From the NCBI GenBank assembly GCA_951406725.2, contig OX597822.1:30380001-30444000 (forward strand): a stretch of DNA of 64,000 nt, given 5' to 3'. Below the pieces are notes generated by a model. That model did no database searches. It was given only the letters and a program-made list of their open reading frames with translations, and was not told the DNA's origin. Below are positions 40,900-41,280 of this stretch, piece after piece. The position numbers were made by a program, and so were the translations under genes. Position 1 is the stretch's first letter. Every line of letters begins with the position of its first letter. The DNA comes from Octopus vulgaris (lineage: Eukaryota).

Positions 40900-41280
40900 G
40901 TAGTGGTTAAGAGCGCGGACTACTAACCCAAAGATTCCGAGTTCGATTCTAGGCAATGACAATAATAATAATAATAATAATAATAATAATAATAATAATA
41001 ATAATAATAATAATAATAATAATAATAATAATAATAATAATAATAATAATAATAATAATAATAATAATAATAATAACAACAAATAACAACAACAACAACA
41101 ACAAAAAATACCTTAGGAATGAGAACCCAGGTTCAAAATTTGCCCAAGACACCTGATGAAGGCTGGAGGGTATATAAGCCGAAACGTTGTGTTAACAAAG
41201 AAGATGAGGACAAATATCCGTCAAATATAAATAATGTAAATAAGGTACATAGTTCCTCATCTCTTAAATATAGAACTGAA
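40900..41280 (+). mobile_element. tRNA-promoter/hammerhead short element (copy 3)
   Basis: A box TAGTGGTTAAG, B box GTTCGATTC, (AAT)n, then GACAC-CTGATGA-AGGCTGGAGGGTATATAAGCC-GAAA-CG-TT-GTGTT at about 41148-41193. Confidence 0.82.

Follow-up and report, generated by a model that had tools for sequence, protein, structure and literature searches.

What kind of element is the repeat that occurs three times in the window, the whole 64-kb stretch of octopus DNA analysed here? The original prediction described a separate, non-autonomous element between a SINE and a retrozyme. We put at roughly 95% the probability that the repeat is the pseudo-LTR, together with the first codons, of an autonomous Penelope/Poseidon-type retroelement (PLE). 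Further copies were sought in the 2.8-Gb assembly (227 contigs), which gave 3,268 first-look candidates.

The three copies, numbered here by position, have the order that had been claimed (E 1e-57 or better in the window), with heads at 24239-24168(-), ~32470-32399(-), and 40900-40960(+), each accompanied by a hammerhead and the so-called fixed end. The latter two together occupy 24138-23967(-), 32137-31951(-), and ~41105-41278(+), at 85-89% identity to copy 3. A tRNA-type promoter sequence is indeed joined to a minimal hammerhead in one unit. Stems I to III, the extra A, and the GUU triplet also read as described, and the inverted terminal duplicate of copy 2 was located at 32502-32586(+). 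The hammerhead had been assigned to all three copies: its core is kept in copies 2 and 3 but is broken in copy 1, where GAAAC is lost, and copy 3 has a mismatch in stem II. The A box had been given incorrectly; it reads TGGCGTAGTGG, is altered in copy 1, and has lost its first 4 nt in copy 3. In copy 3 the supposed second B box, GGTTCAAAA, belongs to the coding sequence and does not have the C that ends a B box. Nor does the head bound the element: copy 1 extends 5′ into ~800 nt of PLE ORF (25319-24536 plus 24305-24248), and 38 nt of the ORF's end precede the head of copy 2. The features of the window are as follows.

23967-24239, minus strand: pseudo-LTR of copy 1, with head at 24239-24168, short spacer, ATG at 24124, hammerhead at 24095-24053 with a broken core, and tail.
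24248-24305, minus strand: last ORF codons and stop of copy 1, beyond an inserted, unrelated SINE (~24306-24535).
24536-25319, minus strand: decayed 3′ portion of copy 1's PLE ORF (RT end, linker, GIY-YIG-type endonuclease); 90% identical to locus L061, tblastn with homologue P0005 E 5e-30.
27098-27767, minus strand: 5′-half fragment of the same PLE ORF, 1.8 kb upstream of copy 1; 88% identical to L061.
31951-32501, minus strand: copy 2, with 38 nt of ORF end, head at ~32470-32399, a long (AAT)n/(ATT)n spacer that is partly inverted, ATG at 32123, hammerhead at 32093-32048 with an intact core, and tail; frameshifted.
32502-32586, plus strand: inverted 5′-truncated piece of copy 2, a typical PLE insertion structure.
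40900-40960, plus strand: head of copy 3, probably tRNA- or SINE-derived, 5′-truncated inside the A box, with B box at 40941-40949 (window alignment; head profile in register with other tRNA-type SINE heads).
40961-41104, plus strand: (AAT)n/(AAC)n spacer of copy 3, in the ORF 5′ leader.
41119-41278, plus strand: first 53 PLE ORF codons of copy 3 (ATG at 41119), open to the element end, with the hammerhead lying among them, as do the "second B box" and the fixed end; in tandem locus L133, this frame matches the P0005 N-terminus.
41148-41193, plus strand: minimal type I hammerhead of copy 3, with core at 41153-41159 and 41181-41184, palindromic stem III, and predicted cut after 41188; fits the description of PLE minimal hammerheads excerpted from PMC4209133.
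41245-41278, plus strand: PLE "tail" extension of copy 3 (~35 nt; the fixed end of the original prediction), putatively between two internal RT start sites (piece-end clusters; as described in parts of PMC11167929 and PMC8557442).
41384-41636, plus strand: host exon encoding LDL-receptor class B repeats (Pfam PF00058, E 1e-15); 41383-41636, but not the adjoining intron, is covered by contigs from three RNA-like runs.

Copy 3 lies in sense orientation in the intron 5′ of the LDL-receptor-related exon. It had been placed about 190 nt upstream of an acceptor; this holds for the cut site, ~195 nt from the acceptor at 41383/41384, but the element ends only ~105 nt from the exon. Because the first 4 nt of its A box are missing, the promoter of copy 3 is probably dead, and nothing suggests a host function for this copy. 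The ORF fragment at 27098-27767(-) and copy 1 may be a single insertion.

The complete unit reads, in order, ORF, stop codon, ~13 nt, a head with A and B boxes, (AAT)n, ATG, a hammerhead in codons 10-25, the tail, and the remaining ORF. Using the copy 1 ORF as the query, a genome search returned 29 ORF-end loci (the window's own excluded; three of the 29 near-duplicates on one contig). The ORF end was followed by a collinear head piece in 25 of them and by hammerhead or tail sequence in two more. Similarly, in a search with the 5′ part of the ORF, a hammerhead or tail lay directly 5′ of that part in ~14 of 29 ORF-start loci. Since the unit stands both after the ORF stop and before the ORF body, it is the pseudo-LTR of partial tandems, the arrangement expected of PLE pseudo-LTRs. 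Separately, the loci L044, L050, L051, and L053 on contig C31 are near-identical and share their flanks, indicating segmental duplication.

The coding capacity also matches that of a PLE, with a single ORF for RT and, at the C-terminus, a GIY-YIG endonuclease. RT motifs are present in the ORF translations, and Pfam RVT_1 matched one of three family proteins just under the cut-off (E 1.2e-6; 28.8 bits versus 29.6), with no Pfam match in the other two. The GIY-YIG-like motif of the family is a by-eye reading, Pfam having given none in the family's own proteins; a Pfam GIY-YIG match was obtained in one of four scanned homologues (P0023). Among the longer proteins, 131 homologues were found, the best 67% identical, and the ORF is 62% identical over 629 aa to the full-length homologue P0005. 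By eye, the RT-EN linker in the translations has no extra zinc-finger-like motif, a motif that, in the part of PMC8557442 consulted, sets Neptune and Nematis apart from Penelope/Poseidon. A PDB sequence search gave no match.

The insertion structures point the same way. According to the same source in part (PMC8557442), inverted 5′-truncated pieces and a tail of 30-40 nt on one end are PLE hallmarks. Indeed, an inverted 5′ piece is present in 53 of 87 hammerhead-anchored loci, and the tail sits either at the 3′ end or on this inverted piece, with both carrying it in one of 29 loci (a set not selected for the tail). The 3′ ends of the pieces form two clusters, at reference positions 144-162 and 184-187; these clusters and the tail match the PLE pattern. 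The proposal that PLE machinery moves the repeat also stands. By each sequence feature examined, the element is a PLE member and not a SINE, a retrozyme, or a TRIM. The copies are 92-99% identical to the column majority and none of those retrieved has an intact ORF, and the family may currently be inactive.

Other PLE-like families were seen as fragments that keep long open frames, at L247:5136-6140(-), L158:225-1034(-), and L005:96-1035(-); the linker of the first is Cys-rich, like that described for Neptune. The PLE-like match G000:C2:165608907-165610589(-) lies in a stop-free frame of 569 aa and is a candidate young copy.

The 3′ half of the supposed SINE proved to be coding. An ATG 29 nt 5′ of the hammerhead (41119 in the window) opens a frame that takes in the hammerhead along with the "second B box" and the fixed end. 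This frame continues into the ORF body in L133, L135, L137, and L141; of these, L135 and L141 contain stops in their first 60 codons. In L133, it is 42% identical over 50 aa to the N-terminus of P0005 (E 2e-7), and the homology spans the hammerhead. Judged from these frames, the hammerhead, the "second B box," and the fixed end are N-terminal codons of the ORF. A 47-nt GT-AG intron in the tail, giving a later ATG, was considered and rejected: the unspliced frame is homologous to the P0005 N-terminus, and contigs of four RNA-like runs, a weak test, held no such joint.

The head comprises 74 nt, starts ~13 nt past the stop codon, and has intact A and B boxes in the column majority, as in the tRNA-derived 5′ heads of tRNA SINEs. 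Neither ARAGORN nor Rfam scored it as a tRNA, and no tRNA fold was found; the acceptor and T stems are broken, although a remnant of the acceptor stem is visible. The head profile gave a weak in-register match to the genome's other tRNA-type SINE heads. A free parent SINE or tRNA was not found in the 1.37-Mb systematic sample and the window, and the sole match of a genome pattern search was rejected as the parent, being another SINE-like sequence and not a tRNA. The head probably originated as a tRNA, or as a SINE with an (AAT)n tail, inserted into the PLE 3′ UTR. As the original prediction required, the modules travel together. A collinear tail was present in 24 of 30 head-anchored loci, with an inverted tail or ORF end in four more; a collinear head piece was present in 54 of 87 hammerhead-anchored loci, the rest being cut shorter (hand count from rows). 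Moreover, head column 64 is linked to position N7 of the hammerhead across the spacer (p 2e-4).

Within the hammerhead, the core columns carry their own letter in ~85-98% of 220 pieces, except at N7. At this free position, T occurs in 147 and A in 68 of the 220 pieces, and it is the only common core variant, which argues for ribozyme constraint. However, the same variant is a conservative Asp/Glu change in the ORF, which counts against that interpretation, and every hammerhead feature is kept in only 72 of the 220 pieces. The stems are conserved across these pieces as well: stem I has five pairs, stem II has six, and stem III is a palindrome. In the predicted fold, stems I and II form and the core is partly mispaired, 0.6 kcal/mol below the open-core form. 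By sequence and predicted fold, the pseudo-LTR thus holds a minimal type I hammerhead, as PLEs do. Rfam gave no tRNA or hammerhead among the matches listed for the window (150 of 204), nor in two focused scans. A U at position 17 cleaves more slowly than a C or an A. Although the extra A is present as stated, it is not the caveat it had been taken for: in the sections of PMC4209133 used here, it is conserved in the minimal hammerheads of PLEs, whose in vitro cleavage is weak and confined to dimers. For one PLE assayed in vitro, cleavage is described as requiring protein and as dispensable for insertion (PMC11167929, in part). Among the octopus pieces, starts are in excess just past the predicted cut (22 in positions 91-110 versus four in 61-90, p 4e-6), a hint of copies of cleaved RNA in what is an A-rich, indel-prone stretch where some rows are internal deletions. 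Some tail pieces, such as L292:4-112, have a fold-back junction and are possibly copies of cleaved RNA.

The abundance and ends of the copies were evaluated in a systematic sample of 137 stretches of 10 kb (1.37 Mb). This contained 25 family loci, two of them tiny fragments, which scales to ~47,000-51,000 insertions genome-wide, or about 50,000 (95% interval, 30,000-75,000). Of the copies in this sample that reach the 5′ end of the head, nine of 12 stop there and the remaining three enter the ORF, two by only 50-60 nt. The 5′ end is likewise at the head in 26 of 30 head-anchored loci and, by row reading, in ~40 of 44 hammerhead-anchored loci reaching the head, the latter figure after four low-score upstream matches were dropped as spurious; both anchored sets are top hits by identity and not random samples. 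Most short copies start between ~7 nt upstream and 12 nt downstream of the tRNA-like first base, a spread of ~20 nt, and that base is the commonest single start (seven loci).

We consider it reasonably probable, judging from these ends, that the short copies arise when RT initiates within the opening 165 nt of the ORF and runs off RNA that was probably begun at the head by Pol III. RT would start at such a site on any transcript. From a site near the RNA 5′ end, it would copy back to the start and leave a solo pseudo-LTR, and ORF-bearing copies would require a second unit downstream. Each transcript would hold an RT start site a few hundred nucleotides from its 5′ end; solo pseudo-LTRs would therefore outnumber ORF-bearing copies, and their 5′ ends would record the transcription start. 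If the Anolis Poseidon element is a guide, the two 3′ ends would come from two internal sites of RT initiation, uncleaved RNA would be the main template, and the hammerhead would be weak, acting as a dimer or with the aid of protein; its cut would remove the start codon.

At a type 2 promoter, Pol III starts at the tRNA-like first base, so a start there has the geometry expected for Pol III, and the copy ends lead us to favor, with moderate confidence, a Pol III start at the head. RNA-like contigs over the head and tail were rejected as evidence of expression, host-gene read-through explaining the coverage. The sense strand is also short of T runs. The 2,315 majority columns contain no T4 run (P 0.044 by codon shuffle and 0.005 with third-position weighting), and 66.7 kb of natural pieces hold no T5. 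The T4 density in these pieces is 0.33 per kb versus six in 2.75 kb of three other PLE-like fragments, a modest deficit for which the control is three single fragments and alongside which G4 runs are absent too. The absence of T4 runs is thus weak support for Pol III.

An ordinary PLE with an inert tRNA-like passenger in its 3′ UTR would account for the same ends if transcription were by Pol II and copies stopped at the head through RT stalling, snap-back, or a chance Pol II start; we regard this as improbable, with perhaps the best claim to a hearing. In D. virilis, a spliced transcript has been linked to the pseudo-LTR promoter of Penelope, suggesting Pol II as the default polymerase, and the pseudo-LTRs of Penelope and Chlamys-3 contain the start site (both from portions of PMC8557442). 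The degenerate state of the head as a tRNA fits a passenger. Moreover, a 4-5-bp GC hairpin spans the head boundary and holds many of the inverted junctions; with this hairpin in place and the 5′ ends spread over ~20 nt, stalling or snap-back could contribute to them. Clean snap-back palindromes are a minority, however (11 of 102, or five loci by strict pattern). The hammerhead stem II is the stronger structure (-8.1 kcal/mol versus -5.4 for the head hairpin) and yet only the four piece starts in positions 61-90 are found there, so structure alone explains the head starts poorly. The boundary matches the 5′ register of true SINE heads in the genome, and the intact A and B boxes of the column majority and the T4-free sense strand also tell against a passenger. 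Cutting of a long PLE transcript by RNase P at the tRNA-like first base would likewise create a 5′ end, and that base is the commonest single start, with the acceptor stem leaving a visible remnant. With the acceptor and T stems broken and neither a tRNA fold nor a tRNA score, this is very improbable; starts 4-7 nt upstream and the snap-back forms also need sequence 5′ of that base.

The originally proposed lineage, a SINE or retrozyme whose own copies are transcribed by Pol III and which the PLE mobilizes in trans, now appears unlikely. The majority of copies are indeed short, start at the head, and carry A and B boxes, and trans use is possible, as the Anolis protein is described as needing only ORF nucleotides +20 to +172 of the RNA (PMC11167929, in part). 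Yet comparison of the heads of short and ORF-linked copies (102 and 26 pieces) revealed no diagnostic column: three columns pass p 0.01, through scattered substitutions only, and column 64 is split between A and G in both classes (12:13 and 54:45). This absence of diagnostic columns, with the similarly split column, indicates that the short copies come from the same masters as the ORF-linked ones, both subfamily variants being shared with the latter. The shared polymorphisms and the coding 3′ half are not those of an independent non-coding lineage such as a tRNA-derived SINE. Solo copies end at the RT start sites, without the downstream ORF sequence that the Anolis protein needed. Head-to-tail tandem units with hammerheads, as in retrozymes, are also rare: a second same-strand hammerhead lies within ~3 kb in seven of 87 loci, with never more than two, and an opposite-strand hammerhead in 40 of 87. 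Two single-contig joints that "go back" in RNA-like contigs are indistinguishable from genomic partial tandems.

If Pol III does start at the head of this PLE, a bolder scheme is conceivable, which we advance tentatively and rather doubt. The PLE would have swapped its promoter for a captured tRNA or SINE head, with the whole 2.6-kb mRNA made by Pol III, T-run terminators purged from the sense strand, the uncapped RNA translated behind the (AAT/AAC)n leader, and the hammerhead in the first codons switching the message off. Ribozyme-dependent, cap-independent initiation has been reported in RNA viruses (PMC13725137, in part); in the octopus PLE, by contrast, the predicted cut is downstream of the ATG.

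Most of this is known PLE biology. The closest relative is PAc, a Poseidon element of Anolis carolinensis, for which the account in PMC11167929, as far as it was available, describes two internal sites of RT initiation flanking the tail, a template that is mainly uncleaved RNA, and cleavage that occurs only with protein. As in PAc, a single ORF encodes RT with a GIY-YIG-type domain at the C-terminus, the pseudo-LTRs are in tandem, the hammerhead overlaps the ORF start with its cut (predicted in the octopus PLE) downstream of the ATG, and two 3′ ends with a 30-40-nt tail between them lie within the first codons. Unlike PAc, the octopus PLE has GUU as its cleavage triplet, and the available description of PAc mentions no tRNA-derived head, A or B boxes, or (AAT)n leader. 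Nor do the consulted sections of PMC4209133 describe a Pol III promoter adjoining the minimal hammerheads of metazoan PLEs.

Other systems share single features. Schistosome Sm-alpha and Sj-alpha also have a Pol III-type promoter followed by a hammerhead, but they are described, in the part of PMC6765202 used, as SINE-like, non-coding, and often tandem, whereas in the octopus the unit forms the terminal repeat of an autonomous element and the start of its coding sequence. The TRIMp3 elements Helenus, Ajax, and Cassandra similarly carry a small-RNA-derived type of Pol III promoter in a terminal repeat, with a proposed origin by SINE insertion (PMC10886601, in part). These LTR elements are non-autonomous and possess true LTRs, PBS, and PPT; the octopus element is a protein-coding PLE with a ribozyme motif, whose repeats flank and overlap the coding ORF. 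Hammerhead repeats have already been tied to PLE pseudo-LTRs, and non-LTR retrozymes, which like the octopus repeat are type I hammerhead units related to such pseudo-LTRs, are defined as tandem repeats giving circular RNA, unlike the dispersed monomers or inverted pairs seen here (PMC7229834 and bioRxiv 10.64898/2026.07.22.740005, both in part).

The new part is likely that an autonomous element has a tRNA-type promoter sequence within its pseudo-LTR, and that the copy ends mark a likely start there. In full-text literature searches covering few subscription journals, no PLE with a tRNA-derived head was found; the family may already be filed in Repbase, Dfam, or the octopus repeat libraries. 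Cephalopod papers give counts of Penelope elements, SINEs, or hammerheads without such a family in the parts consulted (PMC13282606, PMC8967140, PMC6962438). For annotation, ~50,000 SINE-looking copies are assigned to one Penelope family. If the element is driven by Pol III, a protein-coding retroelement would be made without a capped Pol II message, from which the question of its translation follows. Under the same condition, there would also be a concrete path from a PLE to Sm-alpha-like promoter-plus-hammerhead SINEs, illustrated on the bolder scheme by the tens of thousands of solo ends, and Pol III promoters and ribozyme motifs would be scattered through the introns of the genome.

Finally, several other repeats were noted in the window. 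A long inverted repeat at 40590-40899 (arms ~40660-40735 and ~40835-40899) is probably a MITE, and copy 3 starts where its right arm breaks off. An abundant tRNA-type SINE is present at 24306-24535(-), 41683-41885(+), and 57794-58024(+); as the first of these sits inside the PLE ORF of copy 1, this SINE is younger than the copy 1 insertion. A 206-nt inverted repeat at 21148-21633, 95% complementary with a 74-nt loop, is likely a young MITE. A repeat of ~380 nt occurs in three copies (7323-7691, 22940-23323, and 53438-53821) at 96-97% identity and is younger than the PLE family.
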